Of a DNA stretch of 64,000 nucleotides, positions 4,111 to 49,362 are shown piece by piece (position 1 is the stretch's first letter; every line of letters starts with the position of its first letter). This DNA comes from a virus. A model generated the notes under the pieces. It saw only the letters and a program-made list of their open reading frames with translations, was not told where the DNA came from and searched no databases. The stretch spans positions 1-64,000 of IMG/VR virus record IMGVR_UViG_3300042261_000762. One strand, written 5' to 3'. Position numbers and translations under genes: made by a program.

Positions 4111-4980
4111 TTAGATTTTATCATAATTCGGATTGTCCGACTTGAAATCTCTTCCACTGGTGGAAAAGTCTTCAATTTCTTTCGTTGTTCTTGGATCTGA
4201 TTGTTGATATAACGGATCATTTATATTTTCTGTTTGGACTCTATCTCTCAACTTTTGCATATCGTGAATATAAGATTGCCAATAAACACGTTTAATATTT
4301 TCAAACTCTTCATTATAACATTCCACATTATCTGTATCTACAGTCCAAACCGGGAGATATCCTCTAACAGTTAAAGCAAATTTTATGAATTTATTTTTAT
4401 CACTTTGAAAATCTCCTTCTGTTGGAATTTCAATATTTTTATCATCTGGTAAAAGTAAAATTAAATCTATTTTTATACCAAAATAATCCATATTGAAGAA
4501 ATAATAATTAAAGAATAAATACATTATTTTTTCAGAACATAACCACACATCTCTTACATTATCTAAAAATATTTCAATATCAAAATTCATTTGCATAGGA
4601 ATAGCTTTAACTTTAGTTATAACTCTTTTCCATTCCTCTTTTATTCTACAATCTTTTGGTATATAAATATTAGGATTTGCAAATTCATCGCTCACAGAAT
4701 TAAAAGAAGTTAGTGTAATTATTCCTCTTGGTCTTATATCAGTATTTAGCTCTACTCTATTATCAACTATATCATCAAGATAAGAATCAAGTAAAAAACG
4801 TTCTTGTCCAAACATCCTATAAGAAAATGGAACAGTAATACATCTTTTCTCATCTTTGAAATAATTTATCCATCTAATTGATTTATTCAGTGTTCTACCT
4901 AAGGCTACTGTAACCATTCTAAAATAGACATTATCGTAGTTGAATTGTTCACCGATATTTCTAATTGTTTCACCAGGCAT
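4111..4980 (-). CDS. T4 gp15-like tail completion/sheath stabiliser protein
   Basis: ITVPFSY and IPMQMNFDIEIF...CSEKIM..F resemble the gp15 VPY.L.FEL.I...QI.EQILP.F pattern. Confidence 0.55.
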   Translation of the reverse strand: MPGETIRNIGEQFNYDNVYFRMVTVALGRTLNKSIRWINYFKDEKRCITVPFSYRMFGQERFLLDSYLDDIVDNRVELNTDIRPRGIITLTSFNSVSDEFANPNIYIPKDCRIKEEWKRVITKVKAIPMQMNFDIEIFLDNVRDVWLCSEKIMYLFFNYYFFNMDYFGIKIDLILLLPDDKNIEIPTEGDFQSDKNKFIKFALTVRGYLPVWTVDTDNVECYNEEFENIKRVYWQSYIHDMQKLRDRVQTENINDPLYQQSDPRTTKEIEDFSTSGRDFKSDNPNYDKI

Positions 4981-10483: not shown

Positions 10484-10566
10484 CTAAGTTCTTTGAAATA
10501 TTGTAGTGTTCAATTCTTCTAAAAATGATTCGAACAATTTAATATATAAATAAAAAAATATATTAT

Positions 10567-11660: not shown

Positions 11661-11665
11661 CATAT

Positions 11666-11753
11666 GGGAAAGACATCCCTTAGGATAGGGAGATAATCTG
11701 AAAGAGATTATAATCAGCAAAAAACCAATTTGGTTCGAATCCAATCTTTCCCG
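11666..11753 (+). tRNA. degenerate tRNA (Phe GAA-like)
   Basis: Acceptor GGGAAAG/CTTTCCC, T loop TTCGAAT, irregular ctGAAag loop and long variable region. Confidence 0.5.
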
Positions 11754-12349: not shown

Positions 12350-12439
12350 GGAAGATAAACCGAACAGGTTAGTCGGCACCGCCTGGAAAGCGAGTGGCTC
12401 TGGGTCAACTGGGGTGAGTTTCGAATACTCTGTCTTCCG
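12350..12439 (+). tRNA. tRNA-Ser(GGA)
   Basis: ctGGAaa loop, long variable arm. Confidence 0.85.
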
Positions 12440-12456
12440 CAATCTGTCTTCCGCAA
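12429..12456 (+). repeat. 14-bp tandem duplication of the tRNA-Ser 3' end
   Basis: TCTGTCTTCCGCAA twice, immediately before the nuclease start codon. Confidence 0.9.
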
Positions 12457-13113: not shown

Positions 13114-13205
13114 GGAAAGAAAACCGATCGGGGTGTCGGCACCGCCTGGAAAGCGAGTGGCTCTGGGTCAACTGGGGTGGGTTTCAATTACTCTTCTTTC
13201 CGCCA
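13114..13205 (+). tRNA. tRNA-Ser(GGA), encoded CCA
   Basis: Central part identical to 12350..12439. Confidence 0.85.
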
Positions 13206-13689: not shown

Positions 13690-14409
13690 ATGAAATATCT
13701 TATAGGCATACAACCAACAGGCAAACTCCATATAGGTAACTATCTTGGATGCTTAGCCAAGGGACTTAGACTTCAAAAATCTGGTCACGATGTTACTTTT
13801 TTAATAGCTAATTATCATTCAATGACTACAGGTTCATATACTGATATAACAGAAAAAGAATTAAAAAGATTAGGATGTAAAAATGTAAAACGCCAAACAC
13901 CAGAATATACTGAAAAGTTCTTTGAATTGTGTTGTAAAATGAATATAGGACAGCTTCTTAAAATGCCACAATATAAGGATAAAAAAGAAAAGGTTGAATA
14001 TGATTTAGGATTACTTTTATATCCAGTGCTTATGGCAGCAGATATTATAATAAATGATCCAGATGTTATTATAATAGGAGCAGATCAAGTTGCACACATT
14101 GAATTGACAAATGATATAGTAAAAAGAATAGGAATAGATAAACATTTTGAATATGAATATGGTGATGTAGACAAGATAATGTCTTTAATAGATCCAACCA
14201 TTAAAATGTCAAAATCATCTGGAGAAAAACACGTTCTTTATATATTCGATGAAGATTATGTAGCGAAACTTAAAAAAGCCAATTCCAACGAAGAAGGATT
14301 GAATAATCTAAGAAAAATCGGAGATTACTTCAATGTTGAAAGAAATGATAGTAATTTGAAATATAAATTGGATATAGCGAAAGTTTTAATTGATGAATTT
14401 AATCAATAG
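13690..14409 (+). CDS. trpS: tryptophanyl-tRNA synthetase, compact (239 aa)
   Basis: GIQPTGKLHIGNYLG, YPVLMAADI, GADQ..H.ELT, KIMSL.DP..KMSKS. Confidence 0.92.
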   Translation: MKYLIGIQPTGKLHIGNYLGCLAKGLRLQKSGHDVTFLIANYHSMTTGSYTDITEKELKRLGCKNVKRQTPEYTEKFFELCCKMNIGQLLKMPQYKDKKEKVEYDLGLLLYPVLMAADIIINDPDVIIIGADQVAHIELTNDIVKRIGIDKHFEYEYGDVDKIMSLIDPTIKMSKSSGEKHVLYIFDEDYVAKLKKANSNEEGLNNLRKIGDYFNVERNDSNLKYKLDIAKVLIDEFNQ

Positions 14410-14480
14410 GGATCATAGGTTAATTGGTAAACTAGTAGACTTTTAATCTACGGCTCCGGGTTCGACCCCCGGTGATCCCA
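14409..14480 (+). tRNA. tRNA-Lys(TTT)
   Basis: GTAGA-ctTTTaa-TCTAC; starts on the last base of the trpS stop codon. Confidence 0.9.
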
Positions 14481-24542: not shown

Positions 24543-24679
24543 AGATTGCTTACAGCAAAATAAAATCGACCACCATTGGGTTGAGTAGTGTAAGTGGTTA
24601 ACACGCCAGGGAGTATCCAGAGAGAACGGGAAACCTGGAGAATGTTGGTTCGAGTCCAACCTTTATAAAAAGCAATCTG
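24543..24679 (+). ncRNA. TTACAGCAA-clamp RNA enclosing tRNA-like D and T arms
   Basis: AGATTGCTT-ACAGCAA ... AAGCAATCT stem; inside are a D arm, a CCAGG/CCTGG stem and T arm GTTGG-ttcgagt-CCAAC. Confidence 0.55.
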
Positions 24680-27671: not shown

Positions 27672-27803
27672 TTTTCAAAAAAAGTTTGAAATAATTTTTT
27701 TAATAAGCAAACTTTTAGTAATTTTGTCGTATAAATAATGAGAGTAAAATCTCAAAATGGAAAAAATTGACATTTTTGATTAAATATATAAGGAAGTAAG
27801 AAT

Positions 27804-27872
27804 ATGAAAAACATGGTTTATAATATTAATGATTGTATTTATAATGATAAGCGTAAAATGCTGATTGGATGA
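27804..27872 (+). CDS. attenuator leader peptide 3 MKNMVYNINDCIYNDKRKMLIG
   Basis: Codons 6-15 are only Y/N/I/D/C; antiterminator CTGATTGG at 27861-27868. Confidence 0.85.
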   Translation: MKNMVYNINDCIYNDKRKMLIG

Positions 27873-27894
27873 ACTATGTTTGAAGAAGACACGT

Positions 27895-27929
27895 AACCCC
27901 AATCAGAAAAGATTGGGGTTTTTTGTTTT
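27895..27929 (+). terminator. attenuator terminator of array 3
   Basis: AACCCCAATC-agaaaa-GATTGGGGTT plus U tract. Confidence 0.88.
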
Positions 27930-28081: not shown

Positions 28082-28462
28082 ATGAAATTAAAAATGGAAA
28101 ATATAAAAGATTTCGCCGAAAAATTAGCAAATCTTACCGTATTAGAATGTTATCAATTGGCGAAGATAATGAAGGAACAATATGGTATAGAACCACAAAC
28201 AAAAGTTCTGGGAGTAAATATTTCTCCTGTTCCTATAAAGGTTGAAAAAACAAATTTTGATGTGATATTAAAATCTGTTGGAACAAGTAATAAATTAACA
28301 CTTGTTAAAACTTTGAAAGAAATGATGGGAAATAGTTTAATGGAAGCAAAAACATTAGTTGATAACGCTCCAAGCAAACTTAAGGAAAATGTGGGTAAAG
28401 AAGAAGCAACCGCACTTGAAGCTTCTCTAAAAGAAATAGGTGCAGAAATAGAAGTTCTTTGA
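28082..28462 (+). CDS. rplL: ribosomal protein bL12 (L7/L12)
   Basis: LTVLE...L...MKEQYGI, EKTNFDVILK, LMEAKTLVDNAP..LKE.V.KEEA..L...L.E.GAEIE. Confidence 0.93.
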   Translation: MKLKMENIKDFAEKLANLTVLECYQLAKIMKEQYGIEPQTKVLGVNISPVPIKVEKTNFDVILKSVGTSNKLTLVKTLKEMMGNSLMEAKTLVDNAPSKLKENVGKEEATALEASLKEIGAEIEVL

Positions 28463-28512: not shown

Positions 28513-28587
28513 GGGTGTGTAGCTCAGTTGGTTTAGAGCATCTGTCTGATACACAGAAGGTCGAAGATTCGAGTTCTTCCATACCCA
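28513..28587 (+). tRNA. tRNA-Ile(GAT)
   Basis: TCTGT-ctGATac-ACAGA; identical copy at 29449. Confidence 0.9.
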
Positions 28588-28641
28588 CTGCAGACTGTTA
28601 AAATTTCATAGGCAGCAAATGGAGCGTAGAAATTTACAAAT

Positions 28642-28708
28642 GCCGACGAGCGGGGACAAGCCAGGTCTGTAAAACCTTTGCTAGGGGGTTCGATACCCTC
28701 CGGCGGCA
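28642..28708 (+). tRNA. tRNA-Tyr(GTA), very short (67 nt; reduced D arm, no variable arm)
   Basis: AGGT-ctGTAaa-ACCT, T loop TTCGATA. Confidence 0.7.
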
Positions 28709-28741
28709 CAAAAAAAGAAGTTCTTTAAAATATTGAAAAAT

Positions 28742-28814
28742 GGTAGTGTGTCCGAGTGGCTTTAGGTATTTGTCTGCAAAACAAACTACGGGGGTTCGAA
28801 TCCCTCCACTACCT
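28742..28814 (+). tRNA. tRNA-Cys(GCA)
   Basis: TTTGT-ctGCAaa-ACAAA, U73. Confidence 0.92.
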
Positions 28815-28888
28815 CAAAAATGTTCTTTGAAATCGTGATTTTTTGACTATAAAACTTTTATATATATAATAAAAAAATATAAAATATT

Positions 28889-29458
28889 ATGGTTAAATAT
28901 AAAGATGATATATTAAGATTGCGTGAAAGTGGTCTTTCTTATAATGAAATATCTAAAGAAATAGGATGTTCAAAAGCTTTAATATCGTATCATTGTAAAA
29001 GATATTCTCTCAGTGATATAGGTTTAAGTAATACTAATATAAATGAAAAAGAAAATGAAATAAAAGAGTATTATAAAGATCATTCCAAAAAAGAAACAGC
29101 AGATTTTTTCAAAATATCTGAATCTTCAGTTATTAGGTACTCTGATAAAAAAAGAATAATATTGGATGATAATGAAAGAAAAAAAAGAAATTACATTAGA
29201 GTTTCTAACTTTAGGCAAAGATTAAAAGAAAGAGCAATAGAATATAAAGGCGGAAAATGTGAAATATGTGGATATGATAAATGTAAAAGATCATTAGATT
29301 TTCACCATAGAGATCCAAATGAAAAAGATTTTGGGATAGGGCATTCTAAAGTTCTTAATTGGGATAAAATCAAAAAAGAATTAGATAAATGCGATCTTGT
29401 ATGTAGAAATTGTCACGGTGAAATTCACGATGAATGGGATAAAAATAGGGGTGTGTAG
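28889..29458 (+). CDS. HNH homing endonuclease with N-terminal HTH
   Basis: CEICGY...LDFHHRDP...CDLVCRNCHGEIH; its stop codon lies inside the following tRNA-Ile. Confidence 0.88.
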   Translation: MVKYKDDILRLRESGLSYNEISKEIGCSKALISYHCKRYSLSDIGLSNTNINEKENEIKEYYKDHSKKETADFFKISESSVIRYSDKKRIILDDNERKKRNYIRVSNFRQRLKERAIEYKGGKCEICGYDKCKRSLDFHHRDPNEKDFGIGHSKVLNWDKIKKELDKCDLVCRNCHGEIHDEWDKNRGV

Positions 29459-29523
29459 CTCAGTTGGTTTAGAGCATCTGTCTGATACACAGAAGGTCGA
29501 AGATTCGAGTTCTTCCATACCCA
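29449..29523 (+). tRNA. tRNA-Ile(GAT), duplicate
   Basis: Identical to 28513..28587. Confidence 0.9.
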
Positions 29524-29555
29524 CAATAAAGTTCTTAAAAATAGTTTGACATAAT

Positions 29556-29747: not shown

Positions 29748-30664
29748 GACTTTGTTTGGGAAGTTTCTCACCTTCGGGTGGGTAAAGAATAATACATCGC
29801 AAGGTGTAAAAGAGAGGGATGGTCACATACCTCTACCACAATCCTTCGGGAAAGTGGCTCAACCAAACAAGCATCGTCCTACCGTAGCCAACTACGGTCT
29901 TCGATCACCAGTCGGAGATAGGATGTAAGAACGGAACTGGTCCTTTGGAAAGGATAAGTGAGGTAAGCCCCCAGCCGCAAGGTTGGGTAAGGAGCCTCAC
30001 TAATTAGGGAGTGACGCCCCGCCGCCAGTTGGTCAACCGTTCGTTGTCGGAAGGGATAAGGTGTAGTTAATCTGTTCGAGCATACCAACGCAAGGGCTAA
30101 TTAACAGTTCAATAGGTGAAAGGTTTTGAAACTGTAAAAGGGGAATGAACCTGGAGTCTAGAAGAATCGCACAGTAAGGCTAGTAACCTGAAACGTATGT
30201 GTGTGTAGTGCATTTTGTACCTCAAAAGGGTATAGACCACATGAGTGGGCACCACGCGGTGACAAACAGCAAATTTGCTCAGCTGGTAGAGCAATTCTCT
30301 CTTAAAGAATAGGTCGTTGGTTCAAATCCAACATTTGTTTAAAGGAAAGTCCCACTCAACGGTAAGCTGAAAGACGTTTAATTCTTGGCACCGCAAGGTG
30401 AACCAAGAACTCGGAAGGTCCCAAGCTGGAAGAGTTTAGTTGAAAGATGCACCTAATGGTTTAGCGACCATGAACTGCTCGCAAGGCAGGGGGTAATCAG
30501 ATAGCTGAATAGGTTTATCGGTAAAAGTTGAGCCACCAACTCAAAAAGGGCAACGTTGTCGGTAAACAGTCTTGGTGACTGTGGACAAGTTGAGAACCTC
30601 AGAATGGGAATTTTGAGGATAATGCAACAAAGGTATCGACGTCAAGGATGTAGTCTCAGTCCTT
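29748..30664 (+). ncRNA. GOLLD-like giant non-coding RNA containing a tRNA
   Basis: About 900-nt GC-rich stretch with no credible ORF, many GCAA/TTCG-capped hairpins, terminal AAGGA-TGTAGTCTCAG-TCCTT, inside a tRNA array with an embedded tRNA as described for GOLLD. Confidence 0.7.
30268..30340 (+). tRNA. tRNA-Lys(CTT) embedded in the GOLLD-like RNA
   Basis: ATTCT-ctCTTaa-AGAAT; flanked by the GAGTGGG/CCCACTC stem. Confidence 0.8.
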
Positions 30665-45355: not shown

Positions 45356-45671
45356 AATCAAATGCTCAGAGATTAGGTGTGTTTTTATCAATTTTAACAA
45401 TAATTGTATGTGGAATTATTGGTGGAATGTTATGGTGCAAGATTTTTAGATTTTTGTAAAGGACACCCATATTGGATTTCTTCATGGATTTTGATTCTTC
45501 TTATTTTTGTAAATCCAGAAACATCTTATGATTTTTATAAAAAAATCAGTTATTTTTTTAGAATAATTTTTTAATTAAGCAAACTTTTTGTAATTTTGTA
45601 GTACAAATTAAGAAATGGAAAAAATTGACATTTTTTGGTTAATATATAACAAAGTATAAAAATTAAATATT

Positions 45672-45752
45672 ATGAACTTTCGAATAGAGAATATGATACA
45701 AGAACAGATGCAACAGATGGATAATCTGATTGGATGGACTATATCGTATTGA
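45672..45752 (+). CDS. attenuator leader peptide 4 MNFRIENMIQEQMQQMDNLIGWTISY
   Basis: 11 of codons 5-16 are I(ATA)/E/M/Q; antiterminator TCTGATTGG at 45725-45733. Confidence 0.87.
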   Translation: MNFRIENMIQEQMQQMDNLIGWTISY

Positions 45753-45774
45753 CAAAGTTCTAGATGATATAAAC

Positions 45775-45813
45775 AAAACCCAATCAGAAAACTGATTGGG
45801 TTTTTTGTTTTTT
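45775..45813 (+). terminator. attenuator terminator of array 4
   Basis: AAAACCCAATCAG-aaaa-CTGATTGGGTTTT plus U tract. Confidence 0.9.
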
Positions 45814-45820
45814 GACATAT

Positions 45821-45891
45821 GCTCCTATCGTCTAAAGGAAGGATTCGACTTTTTCACAGTCGGGATGCGGTCTCGGGATCCGCTGGGAGTA
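45821..45891 (+). tRNA. tRNA-Glu(TTC), atypical T loop
   Basis: CGACT-ttTTCac-AGTCG. Confidence 0.75.
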
Positions 45892-45930
45892 CAAAAGATT
45901 AAGTTCTTTGACATATTGGGAATAAATTAT

Positions 45931-46055
45931 AGGGAGGTAGTGTAATGGCTAGCACGACGTAATTCAACAAAAGTATTTTGACAAAAATATTTACAGCAAA
46001 TCAAAAGAAGAGGCATCATAAGCCGTATGTGGATGTTCGAATCATCCCCTCCCAA
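45931..46055 (+). tRNA. tRNA-Met(CAT)-like gene interrupted by an insert of about 50 nt carrying the TTACAGCAA motif
   Basis: Acceptor GGGAGG/CCTCCC, D arm, insert, GGC-atCATaa-GCC, T arm GGATG-ttcgaat-CATCC. Confidence 0.6.
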
Positions 46056-46136
46056 CAAATTGAGAAATGGACTCATCATTCCGAATTTAAACGGTCACAA
46101 AAAATTCCATTGACAGTCTGGAAAGACAGACGACAT

Positions 46137-46218
46137 AGCAACGTGCCGGAGTGGTCTATCGGGGATGTCTCATAAGCATCTGGCTTTGCCTTCGTGGGTT
46201 CAAACCCCACCGTTGCTA
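46137..46218 (+). tRNA. tRNA-Met/Ile2(CAT) with an extra variable arm
   Basis: GATGT-ctCATaa-GCATC, GGC-ttt-GCC arm. Confidence 0.85.
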
Positions 46219-46223
46219 CACAT

Positions 46224-46306
46224 CGCGGGGTCGAGTAGATGGCCCAGCTATCTGGTCTCCAGGTCTCCCCAAAAGGGAGTCGTAGGTTCGAATCCTACCC
46301 CCGCTA
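46224..46306 (+). tRNA. initiator-type tRNA body with a remodelled D/anticodon region (pseudo-tRNA)
   Basis: CGCGGGG/CCCCGCT acceptor and T arm intact; no CAT loop. Confidence 0.5.
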
Positions 46307-46320
46307 CTAAAAACAAACAT

Positions 46321-46396
46321 GGCCTCCTAGTGTAATGGTTGAGCATTTCTCCCTTTGAAGGAGCGGGTATTGGTTCGAATCCAGTGGGGGCTGCCA
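46321..46396 (+). tRNA. tRNA-Gln(TTG), encoded CCA
   Basis: CTCC-ctTTGaa-GGAG. Confidence 0.88.
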
Positions 46397-46399
46397 AAT

Positions 46400-46470
46400 T
46401 GTTCTTTGGTGTAACGGGAGCATAAGTGACTCTGAATCACTCAGTCCTGGTTCGAATCCAGGAAGAACAA
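46400..46470 (+). tRNA. tRNA-Gln(CTG)
   Basis: AGTGA-ctCTGaa-TCACT. Confidence 0.9.
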
Positions 46471-46493
46471 CAACAAAAATAGGAGATAAAAAT

Positions 46494-46751
46494 ATGAAAG
46501 GTATTACATTTAAAATCAACGGAGAACTTTCAGAAGAAGGTAAAAAGAAACTTCTGAAACACATTGAGGAAGGTAGAAAAAAAATGGAAGCCAGAATTGA
46601 AAAGTATAGAAAATACTTCGATCTTTTAGAAAAAATGAATAAAGATAATAGACACGAAGACTTCATTTATTTAGAGAATGGTAAACATTATATAGTATCT
46701 TGGGACAGTGGGAAATGGTCAGATCCGAGAGAAATTACATTTTTGGAATAA
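46494..46751 (+). CDS. hypothetical protein
   Basis: ORF track. Confidence 0.7.
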   Translation: MKGITFKINGELSEEGKKKLLKHIEEGRKKMEARIEKYRKYFDLLEKMNKDNRHEDFIYLENGKHYIVSWDSGKWSDPREITFLE

Positions 46752-47020
46752 ACTTAAAAAACGAACCTCGAACTTTTTATACATTAGAAACACATTGTAG
46801 AGGAAATCTAATAATTGAAAGAATAGAAGAAAAAATAAAACAAAAACAAAAGAACTTCATACATGGTTTTATGTTAAGAAGGAAAGTAGAGAGACCAACT
46901 TATGAAAAACTAATTGACGAGATAGAAAATCTTGGACTAGAGGGAGTTGGTAGAAAATATGGAGTAACTGGTAAAGCGATTAAAAAATGGGTTATTACAT
47001 ATCAAAAATATAATATATAA
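46700..47020 (+). CDS. HTH-tail fragment typical of homing endonucleases (start uncertain)
   Basis: RRKVERPTYEKL...VGRKYGVTGKAIKKW. Confidence 0.45.
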   Translation: MGQWEMVRSERNYIFGINLKNEPRTFYTLETHCRGNLIIERIEEKIKQKQKNFIHGFMLRRKVERPTYEKLIDEIENLGLEGVGRKYGVTGKAIKKWVITYQKYNI

Positions 47021-47025
47021 TGTAT

Positions 47026-47101
47026 TGATCATTAGCGCAATTGGTAGAGCGTTGGGTTTTGGTCCCAAAGGTTGGAGGTTCGAACCCTCCATGATCAACC
47101 A
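47026..47101 (+). tRNA. tRNA-Gln(TTG), encoded CCA
   Basis: TTGGG-ttTTGgt-CCCAA, U1-A72. Confidence 0.9.
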
Positions 47102-47113
47102 AAGTTTTTTATT

Positions 47114-47635
47114 ATGAAGAAATTATTTACTATATTATTCATTATTATATCATTCTGTCTAAACGCCCAAACAAAGGGAACTTTCACAGATAATCGTGAC
47201 AATAAAACCTACAGATGGATAAAAATAGGCGAACAAGTTTGGATGAGGGATAATCTAAAATATAAAGATACAATATTTTATGATTATAAATCTGAAAAAA
47301 AGAATGATACATTAAAACTAGTTGCTTCTTGTCCAGATGGATGGCATCTACCAACACTAATAGAATGGAATCAATTGTTTACTACTCTTGGAAGAGTAAA
47401 TGCTGCTAATAGATTGCAAGAAGAAAATAGTTTTGATTGTTTATTGAATGGTAGATATAATGCTGATATAAAATCAGTTGAAAATAGAGGAACACATGCA
47501 TATTACTGGACTTCGACTGTTAGAGATGAAAATACAATGTGGACAATATTTATATTTTATGGTTCTGGAATGACAAGTAAAATAGATGGTGATAAGAGAT
47601 ATGGTTATTCTATAAGATGTATAAAAGATAAATAA
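47114..47635 (+). CDS. secreted Fibrobacter succinogenes major paralogous (FISUMP) domain protein
   Basis: Signal peptide, FTDNRDNKTY..IKIGEQVWM..NL, CPDGWHLPT..EW, GYSIRCIKD; start reassigned. Confidence 0.85.
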   Translation: MKKLFTILFIIISFCLNAQTKGTFTDNRDNKTYRWIKIGEQVWMRDNLKYKDTIFYDYKSEKKNDTLKLVASCPDGWHLPTLIEWNQLFTTLGRVNAANRLQEENSFDCLLNGRYNADIKSVENRGTHAYYWTSTVRDENTMWTIFIFYGSGMTSKIDGDKRYGYSIRCIKDK

Positions 47636-47717
47636 TTTTCCTGAAATTTTTTTAATTCGTAAATAAGTCGTATTTTTGTATTGTTAAATCAGTTCATTGA
47701 ATTATTGAAAAATATAT

Positions 47718-47791
47718 GGCGGGGTAGAGCAGAAGAAGCTCGTCGGGCTCATAATCCGAAGGTCGTGGTTGAGCATTTCCCACCCCCGCAA
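47718..47791 (+). tRNA. tRNA-Met(CAT), aberrant T loop
   Basis: TCGGG-ctCATaa-TCCGA. Confidence 0.75.
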
Positions 47792-47796
47792 CACAT

Positions 47797-47871
47797 CGCG
47801 GGATGGAGCAGAGGTAGCTCGCAAGGCTCATAACCTTGAGGCCGAGGGTTCGATCCCCTCTCCCGCAACCA
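47797..47871 (+). tRNA. tRNA-fMet(CAT), encoded CCA
   Basis: C1xA72 mismatch, CAAGG-ctCATaa-CCTTG. Confidence 0.92.
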
Positions 47872-47874
47872 AAT

Positions 47875-47947
47875 GGTCTCGTAGCTCAGGGGTGAGAGCA
47901 GGAAGCTTATACCTTCAAGGTCGGTGGTTCAATTCCATCCGGGACTA
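47875..47947 (+). tRNA. tRNA-Ile(TAT)
   Basis: GAAG-ctTATac-CTTC. Confidence 0.88.
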
Positions 47948-47957
47948 CAAATAAAAC

Positions 47958-48031
47958 TGGAGTGTAACTCAGTTGGTTAGAGTTCGAAGCTTATACCTTC
48001 GCGGTCGGGGGTTCAAGTCCCTCCACTCCAA
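47958..48031 (+). tRNA. tRNA-Ile(TAT)
   Basis: CGAAG-ctTATac-CTTCG. Confidence 0.88.
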
Positions 48032-48035
48032 CAAT

Positions 48036-48155
48036 AGATAGTAAACCAGCTTCCCTATTCGCGACGGTGCCTATCCTACAAGGCCGGAACCATTAGCACC
48101 CGAGGGAACAATTAAGGTGGGAAGGGCGAGTCTCCCAATCTAACTGGAACTATCT
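48036..48155 (+). ncRNA. unidentified structured RNA (about 120 nt)
   Basis: AGATAGT..CCAG / CTGG.ACTATCT closure; TTCCCT/AGGGAA, GGTGC/GCACC and TGGGA/TCCCA stems. Confidence 0.5.
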
Positions 48156-48191
48156 TAAATTTTAATAAATAAATCAAAAAAACAACTAAAT

Positions 48192-48416
48192 ATGAAGATT
48201 CTCAGAAAAGGTGACGATTTCGTCAAAATGAATGACGCTACTGTTCAGGACATTGCGAAAATTGAAGATAAGATTAAAGATGGTTGGAAGTATTCTCCAA
48301 AGAAAGATTACAAGGATTTTTATAAAGCCGAAAAGACAGCGACAGAAGTAAAGACCGAAGAGAAGAAAGAGAAGAAGGCAAAGGAAAAGAAAGAAAAAAA
48401 TAAGAATAAAAAATAA
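48192..48416 (+). CDS. small Lys/Glu-rich protein
   Basis: ORF track. Confidence 0.7.
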   Translation: MKILRKGDDFVKMNDATVQDIAKIEDKIKDGWKYSPKKDYKDFYKAEKTATEVKTEEKKEKKAKEKKEKNKNKK

Positions 48417-48437
48417 TATATATCCATAAAAATTATT

Positions 48438-48983
48438 ATGTATAAGATAATTGTAAAAGGACCAGCTGGCGAATCAAATGTTTCTGATAGAAAAAAATTA
48501 GACGGCATTGATTGTCAGGACGAATTCTCTGAATATTTTCATGAAGCTTGGAATATAGGGGGAAAAGAAGATAGAAATCAGCAGAATTTGATTGATAAAG
48601 GAGTATCCGGTGGTTATATGAGGTTCGAATATGAACACAATAAACTATACGTAATAGTTGAGTATAATTCCGATGAAAAATTAAACGATGATGAAATCGA
48701 AGAGTTGAAAGACTACACCCAAGGTCAACTTTCCGACGGTATTGGTGAGGGATTTGAACAACAACCAGTCATGTATGAGAACGATAAAGAAATTTTTATA
48801 TCTCCCTGGTTTAGAGGACAAAAACTAAAAGTTGAACAAATTGAAGATGATACAATTGAACCAAAAAAGAAAGTCGCTGAAGATGATAATACATATTGGG
48901 AAGACCAATGTAAAAAAGATATAGAAAAAATGAACGCTTTAATGGACGAATTAAAAAAACTCCTCGATAAAGATAAAAAATAA
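48438..48983 (+). CDS. hypothetical protein (GQLSDGIGEGFEQ motif)
   Basis: ORF track. Confidence 0.75.
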   Translation: MYKIIVKGPAGESNVSDRKKLDGIDCQDEFSEYFHEAWNIGGKEDRNQQNLIDKGVSGGYMRFEYEHNKLYVIVEYNSDEKLNDDEIEELKDYTQGQLSDGIGEGFEQQPVMYENDKEIFISPWFRGQKLKVEQIEDDTIEPKKKVAEDDNTYWEDQCKKDIEKMNALMDELKKLLDKDKK

Positions 48984-48989
48984 CTAAAC

Positions 48990-49064
48990 GCTCCTGTCGT
49001 CTAATCGGTTAGGACATCGCCCTTTCACGGCGAAGATTTGCGGGTTCGAGTCCCGTCGGGAGTA
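48990..49064 (+). tRNA. tRNA-Glu(TTC)
   Basis: TCGCC-ctTTCac-GGCGA. Confidence 0.95.
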
Positions 49065-49076
49065 CAAAAAATTTAC

Positions 49077-49149
49077 CGCCCTATCGACTAACAGGCTAGG
49101 TCACCGCTCTCTCACAGCGGAAATTCGGAATCGTACTCCGATAGGGTGA
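49077..49149 (+). tRNA. tRNA-Glu(CTC)
   Basis: CCGCT-ctCTCac-AGCGG. Confidence 0.85.
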
Positions 49150-49362
49150 CTCCTTTCAATATTAAAGATATAGTAGATTTTGCACATTTAAGTTTTCTTG
49201 CAATATCTATTTTTTTAGACCCATCTTTGTATCTATTTTATCCCACACTTTTTTATCCATAGTTCGTTTTCTTTTGAGTAGATAAAAAAATTGAACTATT
49301 TCTATTTTATAAACAAGTACAATAATGTATAATATATACTATGTAAAAAGAATCAAGTTTTT

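Follow-up and report, generated by a model that had tools for sequence, protein, structure and literature searches.

A putative attenuator ahead of a huge-phage tRNA array carries isoleucine codons that tend to match the encoded isoacceptor

Leader 4 is a short leader with an open reading frame (ORF) and an intrinsic terminator that lies directly upstream of array 4, one of the four main tRNA arrays in IMG/VR virus record IMGVR_UViG_3300042261_000762. The stretch analysed here (the window, positions 1 to 64,000) covers the first 64 kb of this 104-kb virus contig (30% G+C; CheckV completeness ~32%). We consider it reasonably probable that leader 4 is a ribosome-mediated transcription attenuator gating array 4 of a Mahaphage-type huge phage, and that its Ile codons are matched, as a tendency, to the Ile isoacceptor supplied by the array. 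Taken separately and judged from sequence, the leader 4 element is very likely an attenuator, and the matching of Ile codons at the isoacceptor level is probable and leaky. The closest named relative of the window was LR756501.1, a 735-kb uncultured phage assigned to the Mahaphage clade, with Bacteroidetes as the predicted host (PMC7162821).

The elements of leader 4 were located as follows.

45591-45598, plus strand: Bacteroidota-type -7 promoter element, TAATTTTG, read from the sequence, with a putative promoter role
45613-45648, plus strand: conserved 36-nt box, AAATGGAAAAAATTGAC-N11-AATATATA, common to leaders 1, 3 and 4 and diverged in leader 2
45672-45752, plus strand: leader ORF 4, 26 codons plus TGA, encoding MNFRIENMIQEQMQQMDNLIGWTISY
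45684-45719, plus strand: control codons 5-16 (I E N M I Q E Q M Q Q M), 11/12 of which are decoded by array-4 tRNAs
45725-45733, plus strand: region 2, the antiterminator strand TCTGATTGG, complementary to CCAATCAGA in the terminator 5' arm and including the ATT of codon 20
45775-45813, plus strand: intrinsic terminator with a 13-bp stem (45775-45787 with 45792-45804), an AAAA loop and a T-run, -17.8 kcal/mol

The ORF starts 24 nt past the box and ends 22 nt ahead of the terminator stem. Its Ile codons are ATA at codon 5 (45684-45686) and codon 9 (45696-45698), followed by ATT at codon 20 (45729-45731), within the antiterminator segment, and ATA at codon 24 (45741-45743), behind that segment. 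The Gln codons are CAA, CAG, CAA and CAG, and the Glu codons are GAG and GAA.

Array 4 (45821-49150) contains Glu(TTC) twice, Glu(CTC), Gln(TTG) twice, Gln(CTG), Ile(TAT) twice, four tRNAs with a CAT anticodon and one unclear tRNA-like element. ARAGORN called, in order, Glu(TTC), CAT, Gln(TTG), Gln(CTG), Gln(TTG), CAT, two Ile(TAT), Glu(TTC) and Glu(CTC), to which Rfam added the CAT tRNAs at 45931-46055 and 47718-47791 and the tRNA-like element at 46225-46304. The remaining genes behind leader 4 are small ORFs without biosynthetic function.

45821-45892, plus strand: tRNA-Glu(TTC), the first gene of array 4, 8 nt past the T-run (ARAGORN)
45931-46055, plus strand: CAT tRNA split by a ~55-nt insertion (Rfam tRNA model, 36.6 bits; anticodon read by eye)
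46137-46219, plus strand: CAT tRNA with a long variable arm (ARAGORN; Rfam, 51.6 bits)
46321-46471, plus strand: tRNA-Gln(TTG) and tRNA-Gln(CTG) (ARAGORN, Rfam)
47026-47101, plus strand: tRNA-Gln(TTG) (ARAGORN, Rfam)
47718-47871, plus strand: two CAT tRNAs, 47718-47791 (aberrant T-loop) and 47797-47871 (ARAGORN, Rfam)
47875-48032, plus strand: two tRNA-Ile(TAT), predicted readers of ATA, 47875-47948 and 47958-48032 (ARAGORN; Rfam, 59.8 and 64.5 bits)
48990-49150, plus strand: tRNA-Glu(TTC) and tRNA-Glu(CTC), the end of array 4 (ARAGORN)

All four tRNAs matching the two Gln codons and the two Glu codons of the leader (TTG, CTG, TTC and CTC) were thus present, and the ATA codons stood, as a preliminary description of this DNA had reported, before an array with two Ile(TAT) and CAT tRNAs, the latter four in number. 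Ten distinct homologues of tRNA-Ile(TAT) were found in related loci. The same description contrasted leader 4 with leader 3, where it had noted ATT codons before an array holding Ile(GAT); this was borne out, with two identical GAT genes and no Ile(TAT) gene in array 3. Leader 3 carries ATT at codons 8 (27825-27827), 12 (27837-27839) and 21.

27755-27924, plus strand: leader 3 cassette, with the box at 27755-27790 and the ORF at 27804-27872, encoding MKNMVYNINDCIYNDKRKMLIG
27861-27868 and 27895-27920, plus strand: leader 3 region 2, CTGATTGG, and the leader 3 terminator, the latter followed by a T-run
28513-29524, plus strand: two identical tRNA-Ile(GAT), 28513-28588 and 29449-29524, in array 3, which extends to 31519

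Under the mechanism that we propose, transcription would start from the conserved box, and the 26-codon ORF would be translated close behind the polymerase. When decoding is quick, the ribosome would overrun TCTGATTGG or the leader would refold into the 1:2 hairpin, the terminator would form, and the tRNA genes would stay silent. A ribosome stalled at codons 5-15 (ATA, GAG, ATG, ATA, CAA, GAA, CAG and onward) would leave region 2 free to pair with CCAATCAGA of the terminator 5' arm, and the polymerase would proceed into the genes for those very tRNAs. Leader 4 would sense with ATA because its array supplies tRNA-Ile(UAU); for the same reason the paralogous leader 3, with tRNA-Ile(GAU) in its array, would sense with ATT. 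The matching would be a tendency and not absolute, with at least one cognate codon per tRNA species and avoidance of the other Ile codon class. From the features described below, we infer that the leader is translated, that ribosomes stall on it and allow read-through, and that tRNA supply is the controlled variable.

The four leaders of the window shared one layout, in which the box is followed by an ORF of 22-31 codons, an intrinsic terminator and the first tRNA gene. Near its 3' end, each of the four ORFs carries an 8-9 nt copy of the 3' arm of its own terminator, able to pair with the terminator 5' arm, and the terminators differ between leaders; the copy is TTCGGGGTT in leader 1, GGATTGGGT in leader 2 and CTGATTGG in leaders 3 and 4. 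To extend the comparison, public virus and metagenome contigs were scanned for the box, and a box-independent detector was added, yielding ~60 distinct leaders before tRNA arrays. Among the box-anchored leaders, 45/55 (82%) had an uninterrupted run of 7 nt or more fully complementary to the terminator 5' arm, compared with 4.3% of shuffles, across widely different terminators.

Co-transcriptional folds of leader 4 agreed with this layout. In the fold without a ribosome, region 2 was locked in the 1:2 hairpin; with a ribosome on codons 5-12 and the terminator 3' arm still unmade, region 2 paired with the terminator 5' arm (-18 kcal/mol), and the antiterminator appeared only with the ribosome at codons 5-12. 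A ribosome placed at the stop codon masked region 2 in leaders 2 and 3. Equilibrium folds of the full leader always favoured the terminator, and the co-transcriptional snapshot alone is informative. With a conserved promoter box, a short ORF, an antiterminator and a terminator, leaders 3 and 4 both look like real ribosome-mediated attenuators.

Leader composition tracked array content throughout the survey. Leaders rich in T, A, V, G, P and R headed Thr, Ala, Val, Gly, Pro and Arg arrays, Q-runs headed Gln-only arrays, L-runs headed Leu arrays, and S, K, H, F and W leaders headed matching arrays. Within the window, the cross matrix of leaders against arrays was diagonal, with leader 4 scoring 0.69 for its own array and 0-0.19 for the others. 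Moreover, Ser positions in leader-1 homologues alternated between AGY and TCN codons and still encoded Ser, which indicates selection on the translated reading frame. The leader 4 ORF was kept as a coding sequence in the homologues L164, L177, L071, L124, L129 and L171; a codon-agnostic pattern for leader-4 homologues matched in 3 virus contigs only.

These observations bear on a reading without any regulatory switch, in which the ORF goes untranslated, the hairpin serves the upstream gene as a common terminator or insulator and the codon match is coincidental. The ATG of leader 4 does lack a Shine-Dalgarno sequence, as that reading would have it, but such sequences are mostly absent from Bacteroidota, where their lack is to be expected. 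The joint variation of ORF, composition and antiterminator with array and terminator in ~60 leaders, the Ser codon switching within a retained frame and the dedicated promoter box between the upstream gene and the ORF make this reading extremely improbable.

The conserved 36-nt box is probably a phage promoter. The box search gave 7 matches against 2.3 expected; the same box occurred in 58 virus and 115 metagenome stretches of the public contig scan, and LR756501 contained 14 copies, compared with 0 in the reversed control. The box was also found upstream of non-tRNA regions in related contigs (L073-L075, L082, L091, L097, L098, L101, L110, L111 and others), so it would represent a general phage promoter class rather than one specific to tRNA arrays. 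In addition, an TAATTTTG element lies ~15 nt upstream of the box at leader 3 (27719-27726) and at leader 4 (45591-45598). Its promoter role is assumed from the known Bacteroidota -7 consensus, TAnnTTTG, and the arrangement hints at a host-type and a phage-type promoter in tandem at both leaders.

Within the window, only Ile has isoacceptors divided among the arrays in a way that allows the leaders to be distinguished. The window therefore offered one weak test of Ile matching, and the result lay in the predicted direction. In LR756501, the four arrays were syntenic, with GAT in array 3 only and TAT in array 4 only; its leader-3 homologue used ATT, and its leader-4 homologue retained ATA for codons 5 and 9, whereas codons 6 and 16 were ATT. 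Codon 16, which was ATG, ATT or ATC among leader-4 homologues, is unlikely to be a sensing position because it lies two codons before region 2, and a ribosome stalled there would mask the antiterminator.

The preliminary description had set loss of ATA from homologous leaders beforehand as one of the observations that would refute codon-level matching. No such loss was seen. The Ile codon of the M-I-Q-E-Q stretch was ATA in 7/7 distinct leader-4 homologues, and adjacent synonymous sites varied (GAG/GAA, CAG/CAA). Two leaders with the same CTGATTGG/CCAATCAG switch before Gln-only arrays (L281 and L291) had ATT or ATC for all five Ile codons, including ATT at the M-I-Q position in 2/2. On the side of leader 3, the Ile after Cys was ATT in 5/5 homologues retaining the Cys-Ile pair; in the sixth, L232, which lacks the pair, the corresponding Ile (after Tyr) was also ATT. 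Arrays with both Ile(TAT) and Ile(GAT) had leaders with both kinds of codon (L127/L236, L157, L163 and L286/L290, the last two from 640-kb and 676-kb genomes).

Nucleotide-level conservation of this kind also raises the possibility that RNA structure, in the form of the 1:2 hairpin or of pause structures, and not reading of tRNA sets the third positions of the Ile codons. The ATA-CAA-GAA stretch was conserved at the nucleotide level in 7/7 homologues, the free-RNA fold of leader 4 pairs the sequence around codon 9 with the ORF tail, and antiterminator pairing clearly dictates the ATT of codon 20. The A/U-rich 1:2 helix is weak, however, and absent from leaders 1-3, and the same codon-class trend appeared in unrelated families with other sequences and terminators (L080, L224, L286 and L280). 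A structural origin of the Ile third positions is accordingly very unlikely.

This codon-class trend was obtained by counting Ile codons before region 2 according to the Ile tRNAs of the array.

Arrays with Ile(TAT) only: 8 ATA to 4 ATY codons, ATA share 67%
Arrays with both Ile(TAT) and Ile(GAT): 9 ATA to 18 ATY codons, ATA share 33%
Arrays with Ile(GAT) only: 5 ATA to 25 ATY codons, ATA share 17%

The differences among classes were significant (Fisher p = 0.003; trend p = 0.002) in a set of leaders that are related by descent, and p = 0.01-0.04 was obtained with one leader per hand-defined family. Families were set by hand because automatic peptide clustering lumped nearly all leaders. One sequence, WIN+24061, was left out of the counts because it is leader 2 read with an N-terminal extension, and its array window reaches into array 3. 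The informative signal is the avoidance of ATA, the commonest Ile codon, by GAT-only leaders (5/30 against a background of 0.48 ATA, p = 0.0004).

Beyond Ile, coverage was scored as the presence, for each array anticodon, of a cognate codon in the control region of its own leader, and was compared with synonymous resampling. The Ser(GCT), Ser(TGA), Phe-like and Tyr(GTA) tRNA-like genes assigned by eye in arrays 1 and 3 lacked Rfam confirmation and were excluded from the statistics. Coverage reached 21/22 anticodons in the window (17.3 expected, p = 0.012) and 85/96 in 14 non-redundant leaders (76.8 expected, p = 0.002). For the C34 and TAT anticodons, it was 13/18 (7.3 expected, p = 0.003), mostly from AAG with CTT and CAG with CTG.

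A more serious alternative accepts the attenuator and restricts the matching to the amino-acid level, so that the difference between ATA and ATT would be noise in codon usage that became fixed as two paralogous lineages descended. Several results weigh against isoacceptor-level matching and in favour of this alternative. In the long ORFs of the phage, ATA, ATT and ATC account for 0.55, 0.38 and 0.07 of Ile codons, and drawing two ATA codons in leader 4 and two ATY codons in leader 3 at this usage has a probability of 0.061, so that the window alone is not significant for Ile. No Ile codon is more common than ATA, so finding it in leader 4 is hardly informative, and coverage of TAT by ATA was at chance level (8/8 against 7.1 expected). 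The leader-4 homologues are close kin, and their 7/7 may amount to one or two events.

Exceptions were found in both directions. In the LR756501 and L129 leader-4 homologues, codon 6 is ATT and falls within the effective control region, and no GAT tRNA was found in array 4 of LR756501. Conversely, the leaders of L232, L103 and L280 contain ATA where the arrays show only GAT; an Rfam re-scan of L103 revealed additional GAT-like genes and no TAT gene. A lysidine-type Ile tRNA, likewise able to read ATA, could be among the CAT tRNAs. No match to the TilS family was found in this contig or in LR756501, which is consistent with reading of ATA through the UAU anticodon; charging of this tRNA with Ile and its reading of AUA and not AUG are predicted to depend on recognition by IleRS and on U34 modification.

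Under strict wobble, leader codons decodable by the leader's own array showed no excess (174 against 174.2, z = -0.03), and leaders also hold codons that their array leaves unserved; a relaxed wobble rule gave z = 3.15, mainly from Ile. In two-by-two tests of codons against anticodons (AAG/CTT, GAG/CTC, CAG/CTG, AGY/GCT and others), only Arg CGN was significant (p = 0.04), and Lys, Glu, Gln, Ser, Thr and Val were not. The survey itself consists of leaders that share descent, with many arrays truncated by contig ends and many containing odd tRNAs that ARAGORN overlooks.

Matching at the amino-acid level alone is nevertheless rather unlikely. It does not account for the graded ATA share, which persists at one leader per family, or for the avoidance of the commonest Ile codon by GAT-only leaders. 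Additionally, homologues before Gln-only arrays have ATT at the very M-I-Q position where leader 4 has ATA, other synonymous sites in the same alignments vary, and rare G-ending codons occur where C34 tRNAs are encoded. Positive coverage with flat decodability points to a principle in which each encoded tRNA species is represented, and not to exclusive use of served codons. Isoacceptor-level matching, as put forward in the preliminary description, is therefore partly supported, as a graded tendency across array classes and not as a strict rule.

The preliminary description had also proposed that tRNA availability rather than the amino acid level is sensed, which is reasonable to suppose. Because a stalled ribosome reads aminoacyl-tRNA supply, the two are inseparable from sequence alone. 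The operon products are tRNAs, with putative genes for aminoacyl-tRNA synthetases (aaRS) in arrays 1 and 2, so read-through can mend a shortage of tRNA or of charged tRNA, and the codon-level tendency fits such a shortage as the sensed variable.

Multivalent leader-peptide attenuators are well known in enterobacteria, such as those of ilvGMEDA (Ile/Leu/Val) and thr (Thr/Ile), in addition to those of his, leu, trp and pheA. Like ilvGMEDA and thr, leader 4 combines a short ORF rich in regulatory codons with an antiterminator over the ORF end that competes with an intrinsic terminator, and a stalled ribosome would lead to read-through. Unlike them, it would regulate tRNA genes (together with aaRS genes in arrays 1 and 2) instead of biosynthetic enzymes, it is viral, and each of the four copies in a genome would be tuned to a tRNA set of its own, so that the feedback would close on tRNA supply. 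To our knowledge, all described leader-peptide attenuators regulate amino-acid biosynthesis or aaRS genes, a feature that leader 4 does not share. The pheST attenuator, a Phe-rich leader before phenylalanyl-tRNA synthetase, also controls a gene of the translation apparatus, and leader 2 of the window likewise precedes a LeuRS-like gene; the pheST product is a protein, whereas here the products are the tRNAs themselves.

In the Salmonella leu leader, attenuation reportedly depends on rare codons (CUA compared with CUG), as Carter, Bartkus and Calvo are said to have described in 1986. There, as proposed here, synonymous codon choice sets the isoacceptor sensed and the sensitivity; the leu leader tunes the sensitivity to one amino acid, whereas in the phage the codon choice would route the signal to the operon encoding the matching isoacceptor. 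T-box riboswitches also sense a specific tRNA by codon-anticodon reading and choose between terminator and antiterminator. Leader 4 differs in having a start codon, a frame and many codons, and it would be read by a ribosome and not by direct tRNA binding; a T-box (RF00230) was considered, and Rfam gave no match to it at the gathering score or at E <= 1 in 45500-49300.

Among published inducible tRNA arrays, the closest case is the accessory array of Anabaena sp. PCC 7120 (trn operon; PMC8421152), which is induced when translation is impaired and is controlled by a protein repressor, TrcR (PMC10272220); the abstracts of these papers describe no leader peptide or codon matching. No published account of leader-peptide control of tRNA arrays was found in a literature search, and the words 'leader' and 'attenuat' are absent from the paper on the 735-kb relative (PMC7162821).

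Several other features accompanied the arrays. A ribosomal protein L7/L12 homologue (Pfam PF00542, PF16320) is encoded at 28082-28462, between leader 3 and the first tRNA of array 3, and is conserved at the same place in LR756501 (L274, ~4290-4670). Because this gene sits behind leader 3, it would fall under the same attenuator; a search for relatives with the L7/L12-like protein behind leader 3 revealed no related loci. A GOLLD RNA (Rfam RF02032, 163 bits) was found at 30199-30662 inside array 3, with a tRNA-Lys(CTT) at 30268-30340 nested in it, and a GOLLD homologue occupies the same position in a related phage contig (L070, 10127-10585, minus strand). TrpRS-like and LeuRS-like genes, identified from N-terminal motifs alone, lie in arrays 1 and 2 (13690-14410; 25100 onward), behind a Trp-containing and a Leu-rich leader. 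In total, ARAGORN called 40 tRNA genes in the four main arrays of the window, and Rfam added several non-canonical ones and the GOLLD RNA.

In related phages, group I introns (Rfam RF00028, 94-99 bits) occurred in the tRNA arrays of L197 (5432-5671) and L070 (9718-9963, minus strand). Two leader-terminator cassettes in series were present in L103 (oriented; 1016/2389), L163 (2077/2710), L157 (1492/2776) and L280 (1749/2324), with CAT tRNAs between them in L103, L163 and L280, an arrangement that would mean two-stage gating. ARAGORN also called a lone tRNA with the amber-reading CTA anticodon in L284 (1585-1656, minus strand; G002, a 501-kb virus contig), which could be a suppressor tRNA and hint at stop-codon recoding in that relative.

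Many tRNA-like genes of the window were unusual. The ~55-nt insertion in the tRNA at 45931-46055 includes TTTACAGCAAA, a motif that recurs near odd tRNAs at 24545, 28610 and 30925. The tRNA at 46137-46219 is 83 nt long and of class II shape, yet it has a CAT anticodon, like the long CAT tRNAs at L071 5620-5709 and L103 7449-7535. Other non-canonical tRNA-like genes lie at 12350-12440, 13114-13205 and 11665-11753; the Ser(GGA)-like ones were called only under relaxed ARAGORN settings. The motif GTTCTTTGA(A/C)(A/T)TAT occurred in 9 copies on the plus strand (0.43 expected), at 10488, 11115, 13917, 27936, 28720, 30977, 45807, 45903 and 47692. All copies lie within tRNA arrays or head them, often directly 5' of a tRNA, and the motif may be an internal promoter or processing signal.

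Why phages carry tRNA genes and how they control them is a long-standing question, and codon compensation and escape from tRNA-cleaving defences have been proposed as their roles (PMC10264068, PMC11555353). Leader codons that mirror the downstream tRNAs would be a direct, self-tuning demand sensor of tRNA supply, and if the matching reaches synonymous codons, the sensor reports on individual tRNA species. Attenuation of this kind would extend the classical mechanism from amino-acid metabolism to the decoding machinery. Tentatively, and with less confidence than for leader 4 itself, the four leaders might together form an isoacceptor-resolved sensor bank in which each array is induced by shortage of its own tRNA species, including the TilS-independent tRNA-Ile(UAU) for ATA, the most frequent Ile codon of the phage, and codons of isoacceptors encoded in other arrays are avoided so as to prevent cross-talk. 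If so, the sensor bank would let a huge phage detect a mismatch with host codon usage or an attack by anticodon nucleases and replace just the affected tRNAs.

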